A DNA stretch of 64,000 nucleotides from Candidatus Poribacteria bacterium (GCA_965237835.1 OZ250160.1:18371-82370), one strand, 5' to 3'. Shown: positions 26,991-51,448, numbered from the stretch's first letter. The notes: generated from the sequence alone by a model not told the origin. A program made the numbers and translations.

Positions 26991-29120
26991 TTGATGCATG
27001 ACAATAAATTAGATATTTCCGCACCAGCAGGTGGCGGTGAAGAGGACGTAACCACTTGGGCACTCCCCGAAGGTGCGATTGCCCGTTTAGGGCGCGGACG
27101 TGAACCTGACATCAAGTTTTCATCTGATGGGCAGTATCTTGCTATCGGCAACTCCTTCGGACTCTGGTTATATGATCTGGCAACGTTATCCCCAATCACA
27201 CTCTGGGAGACAGAACGCGGCATGGTTAGTCGCGTCGCCTTTTCACATAACGGTAAATGGATTGCCGCAAGCAATTCAGATCGAATTCTTAAAGTGTTGG
27301 ATGTCCAGAATGGCACGTGCTTGACACAAATAGAGACAGAAGATTATATTTCAGGATTGACTTTTTCCTCTGATAACCGATATCTTGCTGCTGCCTATGC
27401 ACGTTCTTCTACTATTGAAATCTGGAATCCAGAAACCGGTGAACCGTTTGCAAAATTCACTACAGACATTGAAAAAGCCGGTTTCTACTGCCCTATCAGT
27501 TTTTCACCAGATACTCAACTGATAGCGTCTACGTGTAGCTCCGCTACCACTGATAATGCGGAGTCAATAATAGTATGGGATATGGAAAGCGGCGAACAAA
27601 TTGCGTGTCTCTCAAAGCACACCAATTGGGTCACAACCCTCTGCTTTTCACCATGTGGGAAGTTCCTCGCCTCTGGCGGTGAAGATGGCACCGTATACGT
27701 ATGGGATGTGGATACTTGGCAACAGGTACAGTCATATACTGACTATGGCAAGGTGTATCGCATTATCCCTTCCTATTCACAAGATGGAATTCTACGTGCA
27801 TCGATTATCACCTATGACGAAACCGGTCCAGCCACTATCACTGTCCAAGACCTTGAGAGCGGAGAACAACTTTATACTGATCAAGTCTGGGGCAATACCG
27901 TGCAATTTTCCGATGCAGGCGATTGGGGAAACACTGTCGTATTTTCAAACGGATCGCAACTTGCTTACGAATGCAGACATGAATTTATTAACGTATGGAC
28001 TTCTGAACATCCCTACAGACGACAATTCACGCATTCGCCTATCTCGTTTCCGACATCGGTAGTATTTTCCCAAGATGGTAAAACGTTAGCCGTTCAGCAT
28101 CATCATGAAGGTGTTGTGTTATGGGATATTGAAAGTAAACGTTCACGTCCTGCAATTAAAGAGGCATCGGCAGGAAAAAATCAGTTTGTGTACGCACCCG
28201 CCAGGGGCAAACTACATGTCGCAAGTATCAAAGATGATAACGTTACGCTATGGGAAGCTGATGGTGATGGAATCCCACTTATTGAAGGAACATGCCGTAA
28301 ATACTGGAGTGCTTTTCCTGCATTAGCACCGACAGGCACGCTTTTCGCTTATGCTGACGCAGATGGCAACTTACAAATCTGGGATGTGCAAAGTGGGGAG
28401 AAACTTCATGAATTAACACATCCGCTATATGAAGATGAGGAGGATGAAGATGATGAAGATGACGAAGATAAAATTAGTGAGTTAGCGTTCAGTCCCGATG
28501 GAAGTCTTCTCACAAGTGAGTCGCGTTTCACACCTGTTCGGCTGTGGGATATGGAACATGGTGAAGAAATAATCGCATTTCCGGGTGATAGCCTTGGAGG
28601 AATCATAGGATTTTCTCCCTGTGGCAAGTATCTCGCTTGTTTTGGAGAATATGTCCAATTGTGGGACATCACCCGTGGCGAAATGTTCATAACGTCTATA
28701 ACACAAGATCAGGTGACAGACGAGTTCGCGTTTTCGCCGTGTGGGCGGTACTTGGCTGCAGGTATGAACGAAATTATGCTGTGGGACATCGCCCGTTGTG
28801 AATTACACATGCAGCTCCCACTCCCACAAGGATGCCAGCTAATGTTTCCTTTAACATTTTCTCCGTGCGGGAACTATCTTGCAGCAGGTGCATGGTGGCG
28901 ACAAGGTTTGGATAAGGTGCCTATCTGTTTGTGGGAAGTAGAAACGGGTAAACATCTTGTCACCTTTTGGGGACACTCGACAGACGTACAGGCACTCGCC
29001 TTCTCTACAGACAACAAACTTTTAGCGAGTGCAAGTTATGATGGTTCCATTCTTCTATGGGATTTAACACCTTATATAATCGATTGGGGTCAGAAGAAGG
29101 AATTGCGGGCATCACCATAA
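26991..29120 (+). CDS. WD40 repeat protein
   Basis: Many FSP/D.G..LA.G.....WD repeats; TWALPEGAIARLGRG lead-in. Confidence 0.9.
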   Translation: MMHDNKLDISAPAGGGEEDVTTWALPEGAIARLGRGREPDIKFSSDGQYLAIGNSFGLWLYDLATLSPITLWETERGMVSRVAFSHNGKWIAASNSDRILKVLDVQNGTCLTQIETEDYISGLTFSSDNRYLAAAYARSSTIEIWNPETGEPFAKFTTDIEKAGFYCPISFSPDTQLIASTCSSATTDNAESIIVWDMESGEQIACLSKHTNWVTTLCFSPCGKFLASGGEDGTVYVWDVDTWQQVQSYTDYGKVYRIIPSYSQDGILRASIITYDETGPATITVQDLESGEQLYTDQVWGNTVQFSDAGDWGNTVVFSNGSQLAYECRHEFINVWTSEHPYRRQFTHSPISFPTSVVFSQDGKTLAVQHHHEGVVLWDIESKRSRPAIKEASAGKNQFVYAPARGKLHVASIKDDNVTLWEADGDGIPLIEGTCRKYWSAFPALAPTGTLFAYADADGNLQIWDVQSGEKLHELTHPLYEDEEDEDDEDDEDKISELAFSPDGSLLTSESRFTPVRLWDMEHGEEIIAFPGDSLGGIIGFSPCGKYLACFGEYVQLWDITRGEMFITSITQDQVTDEFAFSPCGRYLAAGMNEIMLWDIARCELHMQLPLPQGCQLMFPLTFSPCGNYLAAGAWWRQGLDKVPICLWEVETGKHLVTFWGHSTDVQALAFSTDNKLLASASYDGSILLWDLTPYIIDWGQKKELRASP

Positions 29121-29251
29121 AATCAGACGAAAATTGAGTATTTCTGAATTAAAAATTCAGATTTCTTTCCAATTATGACATTTTTGCAACCTATCCACTG
29201 CAAAATCGCGTCACCATTATTGTATGTCAAATTGATTATAGGAGTTCTCTG

Positions 29252-31969
29252 ATGGAAAGAGATGACGTTGAACTAATTCACAGCGTATTATCGGGTGACG
29301 AGGCTGCCTTCAGCGAGTTAGTAAGAAAATACCAGAAAAGCGTTCACGCGCTTGCATGGCGGAAAATTGGCGATTTTCATATAGCAGAGGAAATTACCCA
29401 AGATACTTTCCTTCAAGCACATAAAAAACTTGCATCGCTAAAAAATCCGAATCAATTTGCTGGGTGGCTTTACGTGATCACAGATCGGCTTTGCAAAGCA
29501 TGGTTCCGAAAGAAGCAACCGGAAATGCAATCGCTTGAAGCTACTAGTGAAGAAACACTCGAAAAAACCGTTTATGCCAGTTATGTAACAAAACAGCGTG
29601 AAAAAGCATCAGTTGAACATCAACGTAAAATTGTTCAAAAACTTTTGGAAAAGCTGCCAGAAAGCGAACGCACGGTGATGGTACTTCACTACCTCGGAGA
29701 AATGAGTTGTGAAGCGATTAGCAAGTTTTTAGGCGTATCCCCAAACACTGTTAAAAGTCGACTTCAACGCGCGCGTGAACGATTAAGAAATGAAGAACCC
29801 ATAATTCGAGAAACCCTTGGCGGGATCCGACTCCCTACCAATCTAACTGAGAACATCATGCAGCAGATTGACAAAGTGAAACAGCCGTCCCCATTGGGAA
29901 ATAAGCCACTACCGTGGGTTGCATTAGCCTCATCTGCTGTTTTAGTACTTTTGCTGATAGGTGCAAGTAATCAATACATCGCTAATTTTCGGCAGCCGTA
30001 TAGCGTTGATGCCCAATCAGAGATCACTATTGAAATTGTTGATGCAGCTATTATTGTTAGTCTACAATCAAAACCAGAATTGAAAAACCGTATTGGTGGT
30101 GATACTAACCTCAGCAAAAACAGTATCAACGGTCTAACAAAAGGAACAAAAAAAGTGGAAAACAACTTAACACAAGATGCTATGCAATGGAACCTGCCTG
30201 AAGATGCCAAAGCGCGTCTCGGTAAAGGGTATATAGCTGATATACAATATTCTCCTGATGGGAAGTTTCTGGCTGTTGTGAGCGGCATCGGTATTTGGCT
30301 TTACGATGTAACAGTACATCAAGAGGCCAGTCTAATCACAGGGTATACGGGTATTGTACTCGACTGCCTTGTCTTCAGCCCAGATGGACGCATCTTAGCG
30401 AGTGGAAATGCCGATGGCACTATTGTCCTGCATGATAGAATCACAGGTGAGCAAACAACGCTCATTGGGCATCAAGATTATATCACAAGCTTAGCATTCA
30501 GTCCCGATGGAAAAACAATTGCGAGTGTTAGTCGGCAAGGTGCTATTCTATTATGGGATGCTATCACCGGAGAGGAAAAGTATACACTCACGAATGATTT
30601 GGGGAGTGCTAATTTATCATTCACACCAGATGGACAGACACTTGTAAGTATGAGTAGGGGAGACAAAATCAGTCTGTGGAATTCGATCACGGGTGAACAC
30701 AAGAAAACATTCGCTATGCACCCTGATTGCTCTGCTATAGGTGCAGCGTTCAGTCCTGATGGAATAACAGTCGCTGTTGGTAGTGCAAATGGCACTGTCT
30801 ACCTCTACGACTTAAACACAGGCGAACACAAGATGATCCTCTCCGAGCATAAGGATCATGTTGCCAGCTTAGCGTTTAGCCCTGATGGAAAAATACTTGC
30901 TACTGTGTCATTTGATGAAGAAACAATCTGTCTATGGGATGTACACACTGGCGCACACAGGATAATACTCACCGAACACCCGCTAAATGTCGGGTACGGG
31001 GGCTTAGCGTTCAGTCCGGATGGAAAAACAATTGCGAGTGGAGGTGGCGATGGCACCATCCGGTTCTGGGATGCACACACCGGCGACGCGAAAAAGATAT
31101 TCTCTGGACATTCGCAGGAGGTCCGCAGTGTTGCGTTCAATCCGAATGGGAACTATATCGCAAGTGGGTGCGCCAGTGGAATTATTCGTCTATGGGATGC
31201 GGACACAAGGCAACCCATAAGAACACTTAACGATCCTAAAAATGGGCATATAGGATCGGCTTACAGTATAGTGTTCAGCCCTGATGGAAAGACTCTTTTT
31301 TGTGGAACTGGCGACGGCATCCACCTCTGGGATGCACACACCGGCGAACACAAATTGATGCTTACTGGACATACGAGTTTTGTTGATGATATAGCACTCA
31401 GTTCGGACGGAAATATACTTGCGAGTGGAAGTCGGGACAATACTATCCGCCTCTGGGATGCACACACCGGCGAACATAAAAGAACACTTATTGGACATAA
31501 GTTGATCAATAGTATCGCGTTCAGTCCTGATGGAAAAATCCTCGCAAGCGGAAGTGAGGATAGAACTATTCGTCTCTGGGATGTTGCAACTGGTAAAAAT
31601 AAAATGGTACTTACCGGACATAAAAGATGGGTGGAAAGTTTAGCGTTCAGTCCTGATGGAAAAATCCTCGCAAGTGGAGACGATGGCGGGATAATCCATC
31701 TATGGGATATAGACACATGGAAAACCAAACTTACACTTAGCGGGCATACAGATTTGATGTGCTTAGCGTTCAGTCCTAATGGAAAAACCCTCGCAAGTGG
31801 TTGTGCTGATGGCACGATTCATTTATGGGATGCACACACCGGCGAACACCAGAAAACACTGACGGGTCATACAACTTGGGTCAATAGTATCGCTTTTAGT
31901 CCTGATGGAAAAACCCTTGTTAGTGGCAGTAATAATGGTTCTGTGCTTCTCTGGGAAATAGATCCTTAA
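29252..31969 (+). CDS. ECF sigma-70 factor fused to a TM helix and WD40 propellers
   Basis: sigma2 (AEEITQDTFLQA..F.GWL), sigma4 (LGVSPNTVKSRLQRAR), hydrophobic segment, then more than 10 WD40 repeats. Confidence 0.9.
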   Translation: MERDDVELIHSVLSGDEAAFSELVRKYQKSVHALAWRKIGDFHIAEEITQDTFLQAHKKLASLKNPNQFAGWLYVITDRLCKAWFRKKQPEMQSLEATSEETLEKTVYASYVTKQREKASVEHQRKIVQKLLEKLPESERTVMVLHYLGEMSCEAISKFLGVSPNTVKSRLQRARERLRNEEPIIRETLGGIRLPTNLTENIMQQIDKVKQPSPLGNKPLPWVALASSAVLVLLLIGASNQYIANFRQPYSVDAQSEITIEIVDAAIIVSLQSKPELKNRIGGDTNLSKNSINGLTKGTKKVENNLTQDAMQWNLPEDAKARLGKGYIADIQYSPDGKFLAVVSGIGIWLYDVTVHQEASLITGYTGIVLDCLVFSPDGRILASGNADGTIVLHDRITGEQTTLIGHQDYITSLAFSPDGKTIASVSRQGAILLWDAITGEEKYTLTNDLGSANLSFTPDGQTLVSMSRGDKISLWNSITGEHKKTFAMHPDCSAIGAAFSPDGITVAVGSANGTVYLYDLNTGEHKMILSEHKDHVASLAFSPDGKILATVSFDEETICLWDVHTGAHRIILTEHPLNVGYGGLAFSPDGKTIASGGGDGTIRFWDAHTGDAKKIFSGHSQEVRSVAFNPNGNYIASGCASGIIRLWDADTRQPIRTLNDPKNGHIGSAYSIVFSPDGKTLFCGTGDGIHLWDAHTGEHKLMLTGHTSFVDDIALSSDGNILASGSRDNTIRLWDAHTGEHKRTLIGHKLINSIAFSPDGKILASGSEDRTIRLWDVATGKNKMVLTGHKRWVESLAFSPDGKILASGDDGGIIHLWDIDTWKTKLTLSGHTDLMCLAFSPNGKTLASGCADGTIHLWDAHTGEHQKTLTGHTTWVNSIAFSPDGKTLVSGSNNGSVLLWEIDP

Positions 31970-35409: not shown

Positions 35410-35818
35410 TTGACATCTCCCACACCTAAAGGAGTGGGATTCTTAGGTCTTATATCAGTCCTTAATGTTTCTGAATGCCTTGTTCCTGCTTCTGCATCCA
35501 CTGCTCCGTAGTTGAGTCTAACACGGACTCCACAGGCGTTTAGACTCTCCCAGTGTCCCCAGGCGAGTTATTAGTGAATGTGGTAGGGATGTTGTAGTAA
35601 CAACATATATTAGTTTTTCTCTACCACATTCTAATGTTTCGAGTGATTTCGCACCAGCACCACACACCTTATCACGGATGGGGACAGGACTCAACACAGG
35701 TAAGTGTTGAGGTGATAACCCTATCCAACGATGCTACATATAGTCCATACTATTTCGGTGCAAATGTCAAGCGTTTTTTGACCCACAGCTAAAGCAGTGG
35801 GATTGTTAGTTAATTCCC
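35410..35818 (-). mobile_element. Non-autonomous IS200/IS605 (TnpB-type) element, copy 1, 409 bp, no ORF
   Basis: LE hairpin CCCACTGCTTTAGCTGTGGG; RE hairpin ending GATGTCAA. Removing it restores TTT GAA|TAA, the host gene's stop. No target duplication. Confidence 0.85.
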
Positions 35819-36109
35819 TTCAAATCCGCCCCCACCATCAAAACCGCCACCGTCGAATCCACCATCGCTTCCACCGTCAAATCCACCAGAATCTGTATCA
35901 GAAGAAGAGTCACCTTGGTTGTCATTGTCTAACATATCCCCAAGAATTAGTCCTGTAATTAGCATATCCCCTGTATCATCGCCAGTATCAACATGATCAT
36001 CATGCTGTTGTTTTCTTCTTTGAGATTGTCCGGCTTTTGAACGACGAGCCAGACTTGAGATTACCAACACTATTACAACAACACCGATAAAAACTAAAAG
36101 CAATTCCAT
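35810..36109 (-). CDS. Small membrane-anchored protein with Gly/Asp-rich GGFDGG tail
   Basis: N-terminal TM helix, AAGGAG RBS; the last two residues (GN) and the stop are donated by the inserted element. Confidence 0.75.
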   Translation of the reverse strand: MELLLVFIGVVVIVLVISSLARRSKAGQSQRRKQQHDDHVDTGDDTGDMLITGLILGDMLDNDNQGDSSSDTDSGGFDGGSDGGFDGGGFDGGGGFEGN

Positions 36110-37390: not shown

Positions 37391-38232
37391 TGTTGTGTGT
37401 CTGGCTTGTTCTGCATTACCGGTGTAGATGATAGACAGGTAAATCCGTGTTTTTCAAATATTTCGGTTGCATGTGAGGTATTCAGGTATGCAATAAACTG
37501 TTCTGCCGACTGATTTCGCTCGCTACTCCTCAAGATAACAGCAGGATAAACTATTGGGGTATGTGTTTCAGCAGAAAATCTGTAAAGAACCTTTACCGCA
37601 TCAGTAACTTTGGTATCAGTATCATACACAATTGCCAGATCTACATTACCTGCAGAAACATAAGCGAGCGTAGCGCGCACATCTGTTCCAAAAATCAACT
37701 TTGGTTTTAACTTATCCCATAGGTCTAAGTGCAATAATGCCTCTTTGGCATAAGTGCCTGCAGGTACAATATCCGGTTGTCCAATCGCTATGCGTGAGAT
37801 AATAGGATCCTGAAGCGCACCAACTTTTTCTATAGTTATCTTAGCATTTTTTTGAGATACAACGACTAAATGATTTGCCAAAATATCGGATCTACTATCA
37901 CCTTCAAGTAAGCCGAGAGAATTAAGAGCATCAACCTGTTTAGGACTTGCTGAAATGAAGACATCTGCAGATGCACCTTTCTCAATTTGGCGTTGAAGCA
38001 TAGTAGAAGCAGCGAAATTGTAATATACCTTAATCCGATTTTCTGCAGTAAACTGATCCCCGATTTCTGTGAGAGCATCTGTTAAACTCATAGCAGCAAA
38101 AACGTTTAATTCCTTATCTTTCTGTTTTCCTGTAGTGCATCCTAAAAACCCAAGACATATCAGTAGGATAACGAATATCGTATAGAATTTTACCCACCGA
38201 CCCATGAATTTCCATTCCAAAGCAGATTTCAT
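37387..38232 (-). CDS. modA: Molybdate ABC transporter substrate-binding lipoprotein
   Basis: FAAMSL, GASADVFISA, VPAG.YA, IVY.TD; lipobox FLGC. Confidence 0.93.
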   Translation of the reverse strand: MKSALEWKFMGRWVKFYTIFVILLICLGFLGCTTGKQKDKELNVFAAMSLTDALTEIGDQFTAENRIKVYYNFAASTMLQRQIEKGASADVFISASPKQVDALNSLGLLEGDSRSDILANHLVVVSQKNAKITIEKVGALQDPIISRIAIGQPDIVPAGTYAKEALLHLDLWDKLKPKLIFGTDVRATLAYVSAGNVDLAIVYDTDTKVTDAVKVLYRFSAETHTPIVYPAVILRSSERNQSAEQFIAYLNTSHATEIFEKHGFTCLSSTPVMQNKPDTQQ

Positions 38233-38553
38233 TTGAAAAGAGTATAGCAGAAATATGGTGATATGTCAAGAGTGATAAAATAGCGAACAAGTCATTTAAT
38301 TGGACTATAATTGCAAAGTTCCTATCAGGAGACTTCTCTGTCCGAACAACCCGCCGAATGCCATACGCGCATGAGGCGTTGATTCGCCGGTCGCGATTTT
38401 CTGATTAAAGTGTGCAATAAGCCCAAAACTAAATGGTCTTATAAACTTTACACATTCTCTTGACATTATTTAAAAAAAATGTTATTATTCAATTAATGTT
38501 ATTATTCAATTAAGGAGTGGGACACATATATCTGTGTAGCGTATCCAGATGAA

Positions 38554-38940
38554 GGGAATTATCTGACAATCCCACTGCTTTAGCCGTGGGTCAAAAAACT
38601 TATGACATTTGCACCAAAACATGTTAGACTATATGTAGCATCGTGGATAGGGTTTCCACCCCATACAACCTGTCCGGGTCCTATCCCTCACCTGTGGAAA
38701 GGTGTGTGATGCTGTGCGAAATCACTTAAAACATTAGAATGTGGTAGAGAAAAACTAACGTCCGTTGTTACTACAACGACCCTACCACATTCGCTAACAA
38801 CCTACCGTGGGATACACGGGAAGTTACGCCTGTGGAGTACAAATAAGACCTCATTCGGAGGCACGAGAGACGGAAGCAGGAATCACATAGGAGAGTTGTG
38901 TGCAAAAGAAGCACACGGCTTTAGCCGTAGTGAGTATCAC
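38554..38940 (+). mobile_element. Non-autonomous IS200/IS605 (TnpB-type) element, divergent copy, 387 bp
   Basis: Follows ATGAA, starts GGGAATTA, has the same LE hairpin and promoter, GCCTGTGGAG..GAAGCAGGAA omegaRNA motifs, ends GTATCAC. Confidence 0.8.
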
Positions 38941-39139
38941 ACGCTACTTATTATAGTATACATACATATTGGCACATTACGACATAGAATAATATCAAAC
39001 ACACTATTCTGTCTCCCCAATATCTACAGATACTATAATAGACACAGAGTTGTACGAATTTCGCTACAACAAATTGCATAAATCCAATAATAAACGTGTA
39101 AGGAAGAATACCCAAATAACACCAATAGGAGTATACACA

Positions 39140-39856
39140 ATGTTTTATCGAATCACGACCTTCTTTGCAATTATCTGTTTTTCTGTTGTTATAGCAGGAT
39201 GCAGTGCTATGTTCTCTGAACAAGAATGGAGCACTAACTATGCGCTTCTTGATGGTGCACATGCAATAAATCCTGAAATGATTGATGGCGACATCGGCAC
39301 AGTAGGCGTAACAAGTTATCAATCAACATCTAATAATGTCCGTAATGTAACGAATCCTTCACCTGAAGTTGTCATCACCTTACCTGAAAAAAAGGTAATC
39401 CGTCGGATCGTAATTCACTCAGATAACATCGTTAAGTTCAACCTTTACGCAGATAAAGGTGGCAGTGCCCTATCAGATACAGATTGGAAGTTGATAAAGG
39501 AGGCGAAAGCAGTCAAATCAAGTCCGATTGTCATCCCCATTTTATATTCATTTCCTACTGATAAAATTCGGCTTGTAGTATTAGGTACATCTGACGACGC
39601 AGCATTAACACGTAAAGAAGGTGCGCGTCAAATTCGAAGTATTGCTGCAACCCCGGCAAGTGGTTCATCGTGAGGAACTACAGCCTGCGAGACCGGTGGT
39701 CCCGTACGTCTACGCGCCTCTGCTAAGATTAGTGAAATTGAGATCTATGGCTACGAATCAGTTCAAAAACCGGCTGATGATCCAATAACAGAAGAACATA
39801 CTGATGATCCAGTAGCAAAAGAACATAATGTATTTTCAATAATAGACCGATATTAG
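39140..39856 (+). CDS. Lipoprotein (discoidin/F5-8-like) with in-frame TGA at 39671; candidate selenoprotein or nonsense pseudogene
   Basis: Lipobox IAGC; the frame stays open past the TGA and encodes KISEIEIYGY, identical to the downstream paralog. Confidence 0.7.
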
Positions 39857-39880
39857 GCAACAGTAAAGTTAGTTGTGTTT

Positions 39881-39922
39881 AGAAAAAGGGAATTTCTTAT
39901 AAACAGAAATTCCCTTTTTCTA
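39881..39922. terminator. Inverted repeat, probable intrinsic terminator
   Basis: AGAAAAAGGGAATTTC...GAAATTCCCTTTTTCT, located just after the TAG at 39856 rather than after the TGA. Confidence 0.7.
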
Positions 39923-40050
39923 ATTCTTCTCTTCACTATAAATTTCTAAACTAAAAAATAAAATTCTAATTCATTCACAGTGCCTTATAGTTTGCACATT
40001 CCCGTATCTATCCTTTTTCTAACACCTTACATTCCTTTTGTATCTTTTTC

Positions 40051-40078
40051 TTGACAAAATTTGAAAAAATGATATAAT
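40051..40078 (+). promoter_or_regulatory. Consensus sigma70 promoter
   Basis: TTGACA-16 nt-TATAAT with extended TG. Confidence 0.7.
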
Positions 40079-40315
40079 CCAATTCACGGGTATTGGAAGA
40101 TTTCAGTCTGCCAAACAAGTCTCAATCTAAACGCGAAATATAATACTAACGATAGTAATGCCGTTGAAGTCGAAACAGTAGAGATGATAAAGACACACTA
40201 CTTTGAAAAGTCGAATGTCTACTCCCGTTAAAGAAACACCAGACTCAATGAATTTTTCTGAGACAACCGCCTACATATTTCTTGCTTCACCTCAGATTTA
40301 CAAGGAGTTTACAAA

Positions 40316-40984
40316 ATGTTTAAACGATTCACCGTTTTTCTATCACTTTTCGGTCTTGCTGTAATTTCGGTAGGTTGCCATATCTTAATTGCTGAACAGG
40401 AATGGAGCGAAAATTACGCACTGATGGATGGTGCCCAATCAACGGTTCCACAAGTGATTGATGGAAATCTCAACACTATAGGTGAGACACAAGCTATGGC
40501 AGCTGGAGTATACTCCTATGGGAGAACCGCAGGATCAGAAATTATAATCACTTTACCTGAAAAAAAGCAAATCCGCAAACTCGTAATCCATTCTGATAAT
40601 ATCAAGAAGCTCAATCTCTATGCAGATAAAGGGGGAACCGCGCTTTCTGACACAGATTGGCAGTTAATTAAGGAGATAAAGAGTGTCAAGTCATATCCAT
40701 TGGAGATTCCAATAGTATACGCTTTTCCCACTCAACGGATACGTCTGGTAATTTTAGACACATCGGATGACGCATCTTTGTATCGAAGAGATAAAGCAAA
40801 TTTTTACACCGAGACTACAGCAGAGCAGAGAAATTCTTTCGGATCAACACGTGGTATGTTTAGGCGTAGCTACAACGGCAAAATAAGTGAAATTGAAATC
40901 TACGGTTACAAATCTGCACAAGAAACAGCATCTGCGAATACAGAGAACAAACGTGAAGAAGAACTTGATACTATACTGGAATAG
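40316..40984 (+). CDS. Lipoprotein, paralog of 39140-39856
   Basis: Lipobox SVGC; shares EQEWS.NYAL.DG, ITLPEKK, LYADKGG.ALSDTDW and KISEIEIYGY. Confidence 0.85.
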   Translation: MFKRFTVFLSLFGLAVISVGCHILIAEQEWSENYALMDGAQSTVPQVIDGNLNTIGETQAMAAGVYSYGRTAGSEIIITLPEKKQIRKLVIHSDNIKKLNLYADKGGTALSDTDWQLIKEIKSVKSYPLEIPIVYAFPTQRIRLVILDTSDDASLYRRDKANFYTETTAEQRNSFGSTRGMFRRSYNGKISEIEIYGYKSAQETASANTENKREEELDTILE

Positions 40985-47734: not shown

Positions 47735-48430
47735 ATGAAAGTTTTGTTTTTTATAACCCTCGTTATCGGTTTGGTAATGCCTTGCACTCTTTGGGCGAAA
47801 AACCTGGCACTGGAATTAGATGGTGAAGGGAATTAACTAACAATCCCACTGCTTTAGCTGTGGGTCAAAAAACGCTTGACATTTGCACCGAAATAGTATA
47901 TACTATATGTGGCATCGTTGGACAGGGTTATCACCTCAACACTTACCTGTGTTGAGTCTTGTCCCCATCCGTGATAAGGTGTGTGGTGCTGGTGCGAAAT
48001 CACTCAAAACATTAGAATGTGGTAGAGAACACCTAATATATGTTGTTACTACAACATCCCTGCCACATTCACTAATAACTCGACTGGGGACACTGGGAGA
48101 GTCTAAACGCTTGTGGAGTCCGTGTTAGACTCAACTACGGAGCAGTGGATGCAGAAGCAGGAACAAGGCATTCAGAAACATTAAGGACTGATATAAGACC
48201 TAAGAATCCCACTCCTTTAGGTGTGGGAGATGTCAACCGAACCTAAACGCACACTACACTTTCGATGAAGGCAACGCCAAGGATAATACCAAAAACGGAA
48301 ACGATGGCAAAGATGGGTTGGAAAGTCGAATTATGTTGATGTCACAAAAGACCTAAACCTTGAGCCACTTTCTGTAGACCCGGAAGATAAGCTGACGACA
48401 ACGTGGGCATGGGTGAAACGGACCCGATAA
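47735..48430 (+). pseudogene. Disrupted secreted LamG-type protein with KLTTTW tail
   Basis: RBS plus MKVLFFITLV...ALELDGE before the element; PNLNAHYTFDEG...SVDPEDKLTTTWAWVKRTR after it, with an additional frameshift. Confidence 0.7.
47828..48236 (+). mobile_element. Non-autonomous IS200/IS605 (TnpB-type) element, copy 2, 409 bp
   Basis: Near-identical inverted copy of 35410-35818; follows GTGAA; internal TTGACA-17-TATACT at 47876-47904. Confidence 0.87.
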
Positions 48431-48697: not shown

Positions 48698-49525
48698 ATG
48701 TCTGAAGGTCAAGTAGTTGACAAAACGGAAACACCTGCCACAGTTGAATCGCTACAAGCTGATTTTAAAACACTCGGTATTGAAAAAGGAATGGTCTTGT
48801 TAGTCCACTCGTCCTTGAGCGGGATGGGATGGGTATGCGGCGGTGCTGTTGCTGTCATCATCGCGCTTCAAAAGGCTTTAGGTAAGACTGGCACGCTTGT
48901 GATGCCAACTCACTCAACAGATCTAAGTGATCCGAGTCAATGGGAAAATCCATCTGTCCCCGAATCGTGGTGGCAAACAATACGGCAGACAATGCCTCCT
49001 TACGATCCCGATTTAACCCCTACCCGTTCAATGGGCAGAATTGCAGAAACATTCCGAAAACAAAACGGAGTTCTCCGCAGCGCACACCCTCAAAGTTCGT
49101 TTTGTGCGTCCGGGCCTCAAGCATCATATATCATAGAAAATCATTCGTTAGCATTTGGGATGGGTGAGCACTCACCACTTGCCCGAATCTACGATTTGCA
49201 CGGCTTTGTTTTGTTACTTGGTGTAGGACATTCACGCAATACGTCCATACACCTTGCAGAATACAGGACAGACTTTCCAACCAAGCGCGTTGTACAGGAG
49301 GGTGCTCCGATCTTACAGGCGGGTTCAAGGATATGGAGTACCTTTAAAGATATTGATGTAGACTCTTCGGATTTCGATCGCATCGGTGCAGACTTTCTGC
49401 GTTCTGATGTGGGAAAGGTAGTTCAGCGAGGCACGGTCGGCCTGGCAAATTGCCAACTCATGCCACAGCGCGCTGTTGTAGACTTCGCTGTTGATTGGCT
49501 TGAGGAGAATAGAGCAATAACTTAA
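48698..49525 (+). CDS. AAC(3)/YokD family N-acetyltransferase
   Basis: LVHSSLS..GWV.GG, GTLVMPT, RS.HP..SF, LLLGVG...NTS.HLAE. Confidence 0.9.
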   Translation: MSEGQVVDKTETPATVESLQADFKTLGIEKGMVLLVHSSLSGMGWVCGGAVAVIIALQKALGKTGTLVMPTHSTDLSDPSQWENPSVPESWWQTIRQTMPPYDPDLTPTRSMGRIAETFRKQNGVLRSAHPQSSFCASGPQASYIIENHSLAFGMGEHSPLARIYDLHGFVLLLGVGHSRNTSIHLAEYRTDFPTKRVVQEGAPILQAGSRIWSTFKDIDVDSSDFDRIGADFLRSDVGKVVQRGTVGLANCQLMPQRAVVDFAVDWLEENRAIT

Positions 49526-49566
49526 AGACAATACCTGATATAAGGTGATCCGATAGCAACTTACTA

Positions 49567-49656
49567 ATACCCAATTAACCCGATTTGTAGCGCGAGGTCC
49601 CCGTGCCTCACAATGTTGACTTCATCCGAAGACGTCGAATCCCGTTAATTTGGTAT
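49567..49656. mobile_element. Family-A MITE
   Basis: Canonical TIRs and REP core. Confidence 0.85.
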
Positions 49657-49795
49657 AACTCCACAACAAACTTAAAACTTGACATTCTTTTTGTTCTTGG
49701 TAAAATGAACTGCATAGTAGTTTAGACTACAAGGTTGTTGTTTTTCATATCCTGTCTGTTCTCAACGAAGATTCTGAAGGAACAAAATTAAACCG

Positions 49796-50806
49796 ATGAA
49801 TTTTCACCAAATGCGAAACATAGATCTAAGAAAAGAACTCAAAAAGCAAGGATTGAAAGGGTACTCGTCTTTAAAGAAAGCCCAATTGATTGAGTATCTT
49901 TCAACAGGAACCCATCCACTGAAAAAAACACAAGTACCACCTGCTATTGTGGAAAGTGAAATACACGATTCTTCTGAAGGTATTGGATATTCACCGACTA
50001 TTTTTTCGGGAACAACCGATAAACTGCCGGTCAATCAAATTGTATCTGGCGACTGCCTAAACGTCCTTCCTTCTTTTCCTGATGGAGTCTTTGATTGTTG
50101 CATCACTGATCCGCCGTTTAATATGTCCAAAAAGAAAGGATTGGGGTGGGCATTTAGTTCCCATGTTACAATGCAAGAACAATGGGATATTTATGCAAAA
50201 GATGATTATTTCCAGTTCACGGTTGATTGGATTAGAGAAGTCCTTAGAACCCTAAAAACGAACGGGAATCTATTCATTTTTGGTTCTTTTCACTGTATAT
50301 TTACAATTGGTTTCATTCTTCAAAATTTGTTTAATAGACGAATTATATCTCAAATTGTATGGTATAAGCCGAATGCCCAACCTAATATCACTTGTCGAAT
50401 GTTTACTGAGTCAACCGAATTTATTATTTGGGCAGTCAACAATGAAAGTAAAAAAGCCAAAAATTGGACTTTCAATTATGAAACAATGAAGGCGATGAAC
50501 AGTGGTAAGCAGATGCGAAATATGTGGGAAATTCCACTTACAAAGCCATCAGAGAAGACGTATGGAAAACATCCTTCTCAGAAACCTGTAGCAGTCATCA
50601 ATCGTCTTATTTTAGCTGGAACTAATGAAGACGATCTGATTCTTGATCCGTTCTCTGGATCAGGAACGACAGCAGTTGTTGCTGAACAACAAAACAGGAG
50701 ATGGATAATGATTGAGAAAGACGAAACATATAACCAAATTGCGAAGTTACGTATTGATGAGTTGTCAAACAGACTACTTGAGGACAACCCAAAAAACAAT
50801 TGGTGA
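49796..50806 (+). CDS. Beta-class N4/N6 DNA methyltransferase with N-terminal Rho-N-like helical domain
   Basis: DPPF precedes HPSQKP and DPFSGSGTT; N-terminus LRKELKKQGLKGYSSLKKAQLI. Confidence 0.9.
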   Translation: MNFHQMRNIDLRKELKKQGLKGYSSLKKAQLIEYLSTGTHPLKKTQVPPAIVESEIHDSSEGIGYSPTIFSGTTDKLPVNQIVSGDCLNVLPSFPDGVFDCCITDPPFNMSKKKGLGWAFSSHVTMQEQWDIYAKDDYFQFTVDWIREVLRTLKTNGNLFIFGSFHCIFTIGFILQNLFNRRIISQIVWYKPNAQPNITCRMFTESTEFIIWAVNNESKKAKNWTFNYETMKAMNSGKQMRNMWEIPLTKPSEKTYGKHPSQKPVAVINRLILAGTNEDDLILDPFSGSGTTAVVAEQQNRRWIMIEKDETYNQIAKLRIDELSNRLLEDNPKNNW

Positions 50807-50818
50807 CAAGGAATAGCC

Positions 50819-51448
50819 ATGGAAAGACAAGAAGCAATTCAGAAATTATCTACTATTGAAGGGCAAGACCTTCTTGAACTTGCTAGTAAGTATGGAGTGC
50901 CTGTATTTAAAGAAGGTGGAGGTAAACATAAAGGTTGGGCAGGCCATATTCTCGAAAAACATCTAGGTTTACCAATTAATTCGTCTCAATCACCCAATGC
51001 TGGATCATGGGAGTTAAAGTTGATATCGCTAAAATACCTAAAAAGTGGGAAGTTAACTTTTAAAGAGACAATGGCAGTAACAATGTTTAAGCCCGATGAT
51101 GTTTCAAAGACTATATTTGAAGAAAGTCATTTACTCTCCAAATTACGACGAATGGTTGTAGGAGCAAGGATTTGGGAGAGTAAACAAGAGATTAAATCTA
51201 TTTTTTATGAGGCTAGGACTTTTGATTTAAATGATCCAGAAGTTTACAATCAGGTTAAAGCAGATTATGACTTAGTTAGAGAAACAATTGGCACAAAAGG
51301 ATTTACCGCACTTACTGGTAGAATGGGTGTATACATTCAACCGAGAACTAAGGGTCCTGGTCATGGAAGCATATCAAGAGCGTTTTATGCAAGGAAATCA
51401 TTCCTGAAATTGATCTTTCCTGAGATATATTACAAAATGCAAAATTGA
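50819..51448 (+). CDS. MutH/Sau3AI family endonuclease (probable type II REase)
   Basis: KGWAG..LE..LG, WELK, DYDL.R, Y.QPRTKG, RAFY; 12 nt downstream of the MTase. Confidence 0.8.
   Translation: MERQEAIQKLSTIEGQDLLELASKYGVPVFKEGGGKHKGWAGHILEKHLGLPINSSQSPNAGSWELKLISLKYLKSGKLTFKETMAVTMFKPDDVSKTIFEESHLLSKLRRMVVGARIWESKQEIKSIFYEARTFDLNDPEVYNQVKADYDLVRETIGTKGFTALTGRMGVYIQPRTKGPGHGSISRAFYARKSFLKLIFPEIYYKMQN

Follow-up and report, generated by a model that had tools for sequence, protein, structure and literature searches.

The gene at 39140-39856 of the window (by which we mean the whole 64,000-nucleotide stretch of DNA analyzed here) raises the question of whether the TGA at its codon 178 ends the protein or is read as selenocysteine (Sec). 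A preliminary description of this DNA had favored the latter and proposed a new Sec-containing lipoprotein. That reading is supported by the selenocysteine machinery of the genome, by the conservation of the TGA together with a hairpin behind it, and by independently assembled contigs, and we put the probability at roughly 0.86 that the gene encodes a Sec-containing lipoprotein whose UGA178 is decoded by the ordinary bacterial route, a prediction made from sequence. UGA178 would then be translated as Sec within a lipoprotein of 238 residues, with SelB and Sec-tRNA(Sec) recruited by a SECIS element inside the coding sequence, its loop lying 21 nt past the UGA.

The frame around codon 178 and its conservation

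The features to which the argument refers are these:

39140-39856, plus strand: recoded coding sequence of 238 codons, with UGA as proposed Sec at codon 178, then a TAG stop at 39854-39856; M1 is invariant in 32 aligned homologs
39140-39202, plus strand: predicted signal peptide with lipobox V-I-A-G-C (Cys21 = 39200-39202)
39671-39673, plus strand: in-frame UGA, proposed Sec178, preceded by G-S-S; conserved in 35 copies, in 30 of 40 genus genomes
39686-39706, plus strand: SECIS-like hairpin UGCG-A-GACC [GGU] GGUC-C-CGUA; loop at 39695-39697, 21 nt after the UGA; 8 pairs; about -7.6 kcal/mol
39725-39754, plus strand: last beta strand K-I-S-E-I-E-I-Y-G-Y (residues 196-205), with the strand predicted at 197-205; would complete a beta sandwich
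39879-39923, plus strand: intrinsic terminator-like hairpin, 19 pairs and a T run, 3' of the TAG
40316-40984, plus strand: tandem paralog, with the loop FGSTRGMFRR, without Sec or Cys, and an Arg codon CGT

The ATG at 39140 is preceded at 8 nt by AGGAG, and the N terminus of the product reads ...VVIAGC(21)S, in which G20 and C21 of the lipobox are invariant both in the 32 aligned homologs and in a set of 34. We take the match to the lipobox consensus to mark 39140-39202 as a lipoprotein signal, and the gene product is predicted from it to be an exported lipoprotein. The lipoprotein part of the earlier wording of a surface lipoprotein therefore stands, and exposure at the surface is putative, a lipobox being what is seen. 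Past the TGA, the frame stays open for 60 further codons, S-U-GTTACETGGPVRLRASAKISEIEIYGY... up to the TAG at 39854-39856, just as had been described. The tail was also correctly matched to the neighboring paralog, which carries ...GKISEIEIYGY, and E199, I200, E201, G204, and Y205 are invariant in the aligned homologs and in the set of 34 Sec forms. The terminator had been placed after the later stop, and it is there that the 19-pair hairpin and its T run are found; no terminator-like hairpin was found between the TGA and the TAG, and an Rfam scan of 38200-40400 returned weak miRNA-type matches alone, all of them on the terminator hairpin.

Public annotation cuts the gene at the UGA, and its tail is sometimes called as a separate small ORF. 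Among the best 120 matches from a search of 5.8 billion proteins, 63 were gene calls of about 154 to 202 residues that stop right after G-S-[ST] or a near variant, and 56 were full-length relatives of 205 to 260 residues with 45 to 55% identity. A six-frame search was then made of 112 genomes of the family, 40 from the genus of the window and 72 from five other genera. A match with one internal TGA was present in 30 of the 40 genus genomes, and extra copies in three genomes brought the set to 35 genes; none was found among the matches listed for the 72 genomes of the other genera, a listing that stopped short of 27 weaker matches. Thirty-four of the copies, from 29 of the 40 genomes, bear the hairpin, and the 33 others in that group are 49 to 96% identical to the window protein, so that TGA and hairpin, the latter at the SECIS position, persist together in orthologs as distant as 49% identity. 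Several Sec copies may occur in one genome, with four in G062 (C8 and C25), two in G051 (G051:C207), and two in G050. A weak match with a TGA, at 29% identity, was also seen in G026. Locus L039, from another family of the order, had been flagged as having one TGA, which proved to be an ordinary stop, and it is not counted as a Sec form.

Each of the 35 copies has exactly one in-frame TGA, at the homologous position, and G-[SG]-[STI] precedes it in 33 of them. The TGA is followed by Gly in 27 copies and by Cys in 5; Thr, Arg, and Asp follow it once each. The frame past the TGA is open in all 35, and the distance from the TGA to E-I-E ranges from 17 to 22 codons in whole-codon steps. Within the 17-codon block downstream, first, second, and third codon positions vary at 9, 8, and 16 sites, respectively, and pairwise codon differences in the same block are 2584 synonymous against 1645 non-synonymous. 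By these substitution patterns, the frame downstream of the UGA is under coding constraint. The block corresponds to the last strand of the predicted sandwich, which suggests that a product ending at residue 177 would be incomplete.

These observations bear on the idea of a broken gene, in which the TGA would be a nonsense mutation (e.g., CGA to TGA) and the locus would be a pseudogene or simply end at residue 177. Public gene calls do end at the TGA, the homologous codon is CGA in one subclade, and one copy, L031, has the TGA without the hairpin. Neutral decay across 29 genomes is inconsistent, however, with a TGA kept in 34 hairpin-bearing copies, and the frame beyond it is intact, with substitutions biased to the third position and indels of whole codons. 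Moreover, no stop has been gained or lost elsewhere in the TGA genes, and the gene lies within contigs from RNA libraries. We consider a broken gene highly improbable.

The preliminary description had also called for the TGA to be checked in reads. The window stretch was found in 20 runs from 8 studies, 6 of the runs being metatranscriptomes from 3 studies. In contigs of three metatranscriptome runs and one other run (four studies), the TGA at 39671-39673 is unchanged, while these same contigs differ at 16 other places over 1001 bases. The end of one RNA contig falls within the terminator, at 39888, a weak hint only, as contigs cannot prove transcription. We found no point in favor of the TGA being an assembly error or a sense codon throughout the genome. 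The agreement of the four runs speaks against the former. As for the latter, TGA closes 513 of the 2406 open frames of at least 300 codons (21%), which indicates that the code has not been reassigned, and the paralogs have no internal TGA. The probability of either is negligible in our estimation.

The SECIS-like hairpin and the selenocysteine machinery

The hairpin at 39686-39706 begins 12 nt after the TGA and its loop 21 nt after, in line with what had been claimed for it. We searched for hairpins with a stem of at least 4 pairs and a loop of 3 to 8 nt that starts 14 to 26 nt past the codon and has a G in its first two positions. Such a hairpin follows 34 of the 35 orthologous TGAs, with loops of 3 to 5 nt that start 17 to 24 nt past the UGA. 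Energies of -6 kcal/mol or lower were reached at 30 of the 35 TGAs; among 5789 other codon positions of these genes, the share was 0.5%. When the first 18 genes were re-encoded synonymously with the codons of the genome, the mean was -2.9 kcal/mol against an observed -7.2 kcal/mol, and 0 of 1000 sets reached the observed value.

The published bacterial model has a loop of 3 to 9 nt, a stem of 4 to 16 bp, a G followed by G or U, and a spacing of 16 to 37 nt, with an energy limit of -7.5 kcal/mol or lower (PMC13188914). The geometry of the putative hairpin fits this model. The energy limit is reached by 18 of the 35 copies when the apical hairpin alone is scored, with the lower stem and bulges excluded.

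About eleven distinct hairpin sequences occur in the family, for example, GACC-GGU-GGUC, GGGCCU-GGA-GGGCCC, UGGGGC-AGGUG-GCCCCA, and GGCGGC-AGUUC-GCCGUC. In some subclades, the hairpin sits two codons further along the protein alignment, and its spacing to the UGA is kept because two or three codons have been deleted between the UGA and the hairpin. Covariation was examined in an ungapped alignment of 27 columns centered on the loops of the hairpins picked by the search. The 7-bp helix is 86% paired in this alignment, against 39 to 55% with the partner slid, a percentage that is inflated because the alignment was centered on hairpins of our own picking and the sequences are related. Double-sided changes in the helix numbered 31, against 14.5 in shuffles (0 of 500 reached the observed count), and helix pairs 8-20 and 10-18 each occur as GC, CG, AU, and GU. 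By this comparison, the putative hairpin shows compensatory base changes. Run on the plain alignment of the 60 nt past the UGA, RNAalifold gave 2 pairs and no common hairpin, since the two hairpin types are out of register by about two codons. The minimum free energy of the whole 51 nt past the UGA was not lower than that of synonymous shuffles (mean z of -0.4). The peptide encoded past the UGA is rich in Gly, Pro, Ala, and Arg, which would yield GC-rich structure regardless.

The genome of the window is a single contig of 5.9 Mb, and it holds all four of the genes, selA, selB, selC, and selD, whose presence the preliminary description had wanted confirmed. The tRNA-Sec gene (selC) scores 78 bits against a cut-off of 47 and has the anticodon TCA; selB lies directly upstream of it, selA is also present, and selD itself holds an in-frame UGA in KCAG[U]ASK. 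SelB was found in 38 of the 40 genus genomes; the completeness of the remaining two is 81% and 73%.

At least nine other genes of this genome have an in-frame TGA at a canonical-looking active-site motif. Seven are of the Redoxin family, one is FdhA-like, and one is selD, and their coordinates on G000:C1 are 3117192, 2010972, 4073248, 2846965, 2010519, 2937604, 3118994, 745166, and 5403716. The motifs of the Redoxin-type genes are W[U]PxC, G[U]T, and W[U]AC. With these nine as controls, the identical search found a hairpin in 7, with scores of -2.7 to -10.1 (apical hairpin only). In four of the hairpin-bearing controls, the stem is capped by a GGN loop of 3 nt that starts at 21 nt, and the GGU loop is combined with the 21-nt spacing in 3 of the 9. 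Two Redoxin genes with the G[U]T motif gave no hairpin under this simple model and may have larger loops.

The same data can be set against programmed read-through without Sec, in which a leaky UGA would be decoded by a near-cognate tRNA (Trp, Cys, or Arg) to give a mixture of truncated and full-length protein, the hairpin merely slowing the ribosome or stimulating read-through. The unexceptional folding energy of the region as a whole would suit such a process, and so would the lack of a Cys homolog at the site and the nested subclade with Arg (CGA), which suggests that the fold tolerates a residue other than Sec. Against it, the hairpin has the geometry of a SECIS, with a G[G/U] loop 17 to 24 nt from the UGA, like those of the Redoxin-type, FdhA-like, and selD genes of the same genome; the Sec machinery is present here and SelB is nearly constant across the genus; and the truncated partner in the mixture, of 177 residues, would be without the last strand of the sandwich. 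The distribution of Cys residues described below also counts against read-through, which we judge to be unlikely.

Predicted fold, putative partner cysteine, and history of the family

Under the selenoprotein reading, the mature protein would be a discoidin/CBM32-like sandwich whose Sec occupies a long loop rich in Gly, Ser, and Thr, with an inserted helix on one side and the last strand on the other. No Pfam family, including F5/8 type C (PF00754), was matched by the gene product or its paralog at E values up to 1, and NCBIfam release 20 contained no matching model at that limit either. An AlphaFold model of moderate quality, built with 32 sequences, has a mean pLDDT of 61, with 75 to 85 in the core (residues 72-160) and less than 50 in the Sec loop (171-187). 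Foldseek returned 33 matches at E<=0.001, and those listed are all discoidin/CBM32-like, with target-normalized TM-scores of 0.4 to 0.57. They include CBM32 modules, the discoidin domains of muskelin and factor VIII C2, APC10, and neuropilin b1; PDB entries 2xqx, 4oyu, 4zxe, and 1jhj are examples of this kind of domain. In the ESM Atlas, the paralog lies near F5_F8_type_C clusters at 0.91, which serves as a lead only. As modeled, the fold is a discoidin/CBM32-like beta sandwich in which a flexible Gly/Ser loop, leading into the last strand, carries the Sec, and the suggestion of a non-thioredoxin fold is borne out by the Foldseek matches.

The family is a small one: among 1.84 billion cluster representatives, 158 matched a profile built from the 34 Sec forms at E<=0.001. 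From the whole Sec clade, these include a single truncated gene call, and five small ORFs are its orphaned C-terminal tails. A Cys-containing homolog exists for nearly all known selenoproteins (PMC13188914, PMC12013277). Here, the stretch between the D-D motif and the last strand is free of Cys in all 56 full-length relatives found among the best 120 matches, and among the 69 representatives that retain the last strand in the best 150 of the profile search, one distant protein has a Cys in the loop. No Cys form appeared among the listed 90% clusters, and one may hide inside a 50% cluster.

Cysteines are nonetheless found close to the UGA itself. The window protein has Cys183 five residues past UGA178, encoded by the first codon of the hairpin (39686-39688). 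Of the 35 Sec genes, 28 encode a Cys no more than 8 residues from the UGA and 7 do not, with offsets of +5 or +6 in 12, +1 in 5, -6 in 6, and -8 in 5. The UxxxxC motif that had been proposed thus exists in the window protein, and its spacing is not common to the family. Copy L059 has three Cys past the UGA (U-GTAVCGTGCPAC). The restriction of such Cys residues to the UGA clade (28/35 versus 0/56) points to selenium/sulfur chemistry, and in this respect it argues against read-through and for Sec. With these Cys residues as our main clue to function, we suggest tentatively, and at somewhat less than even odds, that Sec and the nearby Cys form a redox-active selenenylsulfide or a soft-metal pair on a mobile loop in the envelope.

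We examined the history of the family with a quick maximum-likelihood tree of 96 proteins, made with a short search and with five outgroup sequences, drawn from other families of the order, to root it. All 35 TGA genes group with four TGA-free proteins in one clade (SH-aLRT of 96), whose sister is the clade that holds the adjacent paralog (99). This sister relationship fits a tandem duplication. The loop of the paralog, FGSTRGMFRR, is unlike that of the Sec gene, which agrees with the difference noted in the preliminary description. Upstream of the paralog is a 12-of-12 match to a sigma-70-type promoter (TTGACA-16-TATAAT at 40051-40078, with TG before the second hexamer), and the tandem genes thus seem to be separate transcription units.

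The four TGA-free proteins, together with L031, make up a subclade (100) that is nested inside the TGA clade beside four Sec genes (99). At the homologous codon, three of the four have Arg and one has Gln. Where L031 (G015:C61) has TGA, the codon is CGA in two genomes, in the copies L076 (G053:C106) and L077 (G054:C25), and all three of these copies are without a hairpin and without a loop Cys. Genome G054 has both a Sec form and an Arg form. L031, which we counted apart from the 34 hairpin-bearing copies, may either retain the ancestral TGA after decay of its SECIS or have undergone a recent CGA-to-TGA nonsense change. The Arg (CGA) subclade looks like a loss of Sec in that lineage, rather than a refutation of Sec in the others.

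The fewest changes that the tree allows are two, one gain and one loss of the UGA. Such an origin would lie inside one Poribacteria genus, where a tandem duplicate of a Sec-free and Cys-free lipoprotein would have acquired the UGA and the hairpin, and UGA would later have become CGA (Arg) in one subclade. We lean, at slightly better than even odds, toward a de novo birth of the family, in which a flexible loop, exposed on a sugar-binding-type lipoprotein and without Cys or redox ancestry, gained UGA and SECIS from Gly/Pro codons, a partner Cys was recruited repeatedly at differing positions, and one lineage reverted to Arg.

Comparison with known systems and surroundings of the gene

Recoding seems to proceed by the ordinary bacterial mechanism. 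The family is unusual in its predicted discoidin-like fold, its predicted envelope location, its lack of Cys homologs, and the Sec/Arg exchange. The Redoxin/peroxiredoxin-type TGA genes of the same genome would use the same proposed route, a UGA with an in-frame SECIS hairpin. Theirs is a thioredoxin fold, however, with the UGA at a catalytic-looking UxxC or similar motif and abundant Cys homologs, whereas the lipoprotein is discoidin-like, places its Sec in a disordered loop, and has no Cys homolog that we could find. With the galactose-binding-like domains of F5/8 type C, CBM32, and APC10 it has the beta-sandwich fold in common, but it differs from discoidin/CBM32 domains in that a helix (residues 153-170) and the long loop with the Sec are inserted ahead of the last strand, and no matched entry is described as a selenoprotein.

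Animal thioredoxin reductase has a C-terminal Gly-Cys-Sec-Gly redox arm, which is the tail of the flavoenzyme that reduces it. The lipoprotein resembles this arm in that its Sec adjoins or lies near a Cys in a Gly-rich flexible segment, and five copies have U-C after G-S-T. Unlike the arm, its Sec segment would lie within a binding-type domain as an internal loop, and the neighborhood showed no partner reductase. A different parallel is with SelD/SPS1, for which Mariotti and colleagues (2015) reportedly described paralogs with Sec replaced by Arg or another non-Cys residue. In both cases, a Sec codon became Arg by one base (TGA/CGA), here within a nested subclade, and a Sec/Arg exchange implies a change of function rather than a substitute of the kind that Cys would provide. 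The two differ in protein family and in domain of life, and the Sec-free ancestral family of the lipoprotein is also without Cys at the site.

We did not find the family in the literature searched on Poribacteria selenoproteins, on Sec combined with discoidin, or on selenoproteins with a lipobox. The words "Poribacteria" and "lipoprotein" are absent from the main texts of deep-Sep, BSepDB, and the 2026 and 2022 reviews, and the family table in the BSepDB supplement may list more. This is apparently a selenoprotein family that had been neither recognized nor annotated. Bacterial selenoproteins have mostly been found through a UGA aligned with the Cys of a homolog, a source of detection bias, and the authors of one method based on UGA/Cys pairs state that families without Cys homologs may be missed (PMC12013277). 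The lipoprotein family would be such a missed case.

For Sec, a beta sandwich of binding type, carried by an exported lipoprotein of sponge-associated Poribacteria, would be a new structural and cellular setting. If the de novo account is true, the family would be a rare selenoprotein without a Cys counterpart and the first on a discoidin-like fold, showing that Sec sites can arise without a Cys precursor and that searches for Cys/Sec pairs are blind to it. The Sec-free sister paralog, the 34 Sec forms with their hairpin variants, and the Arg revertant subclade would also provide a natural series for the gain and loss of a Sec codon and its SECIS.

Divergent from the gene and upstream of it are genes for a molybdate-type ABC transporter. 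Downstream are the paralog, a GGACT-like gene, and, on the other strand, an Mrp/NUBPL ATPase. The GGACT-like gene is syntenic in 21 of 29 loci and the ATPase in 20 of 29, which may merely reflect shared descent, and a Fur-like gene recurs in 5 of the 29. No redox partner or dedicated reductase was seen in the gene neighborhood.

Much of the 900-nt gap upstream of the gene is filled by a repeat of about 390 nt (38549-38940), with at least 13 more near-full copies in the genome at 89 to 99% identity, about 9 at 77 to 79%, and many fragments (90 BLAST pieces in total). Two copies of the 77 to 79% group fall inside the window by their genome coordinates, one near 35483-35822 and the other near 47824-48163. 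In L024, related DNA is found downstream of the Sec gene, and in L019 upstream of it, which suggests that the repeat moves, and it had no match in Rfam. A promoter-like site at 38460-38511, with 11 of 12 positions matching (TTGACA-17-TATTAT), runs into an exact 17-nt tandem duplication (38478-38494 and 38495-38511). If this site is the promoter of the gene, the leader would be about 650 nt long and contain the repeated element.

Elsewhere in the window, at 26991-31969, two large WD40-repeat proteins (709 and 905 residues) are encoded side by side, an unusual finding in bacteria. At 48698-51448, a member of the aminoglycoside 3-N-acetyltransferase family (PF02522) is encoded ahead of genes for a DNA methylase (PF01555) and a MutH-like endonuclease, the latter two of which may form a restriction-modification pair.
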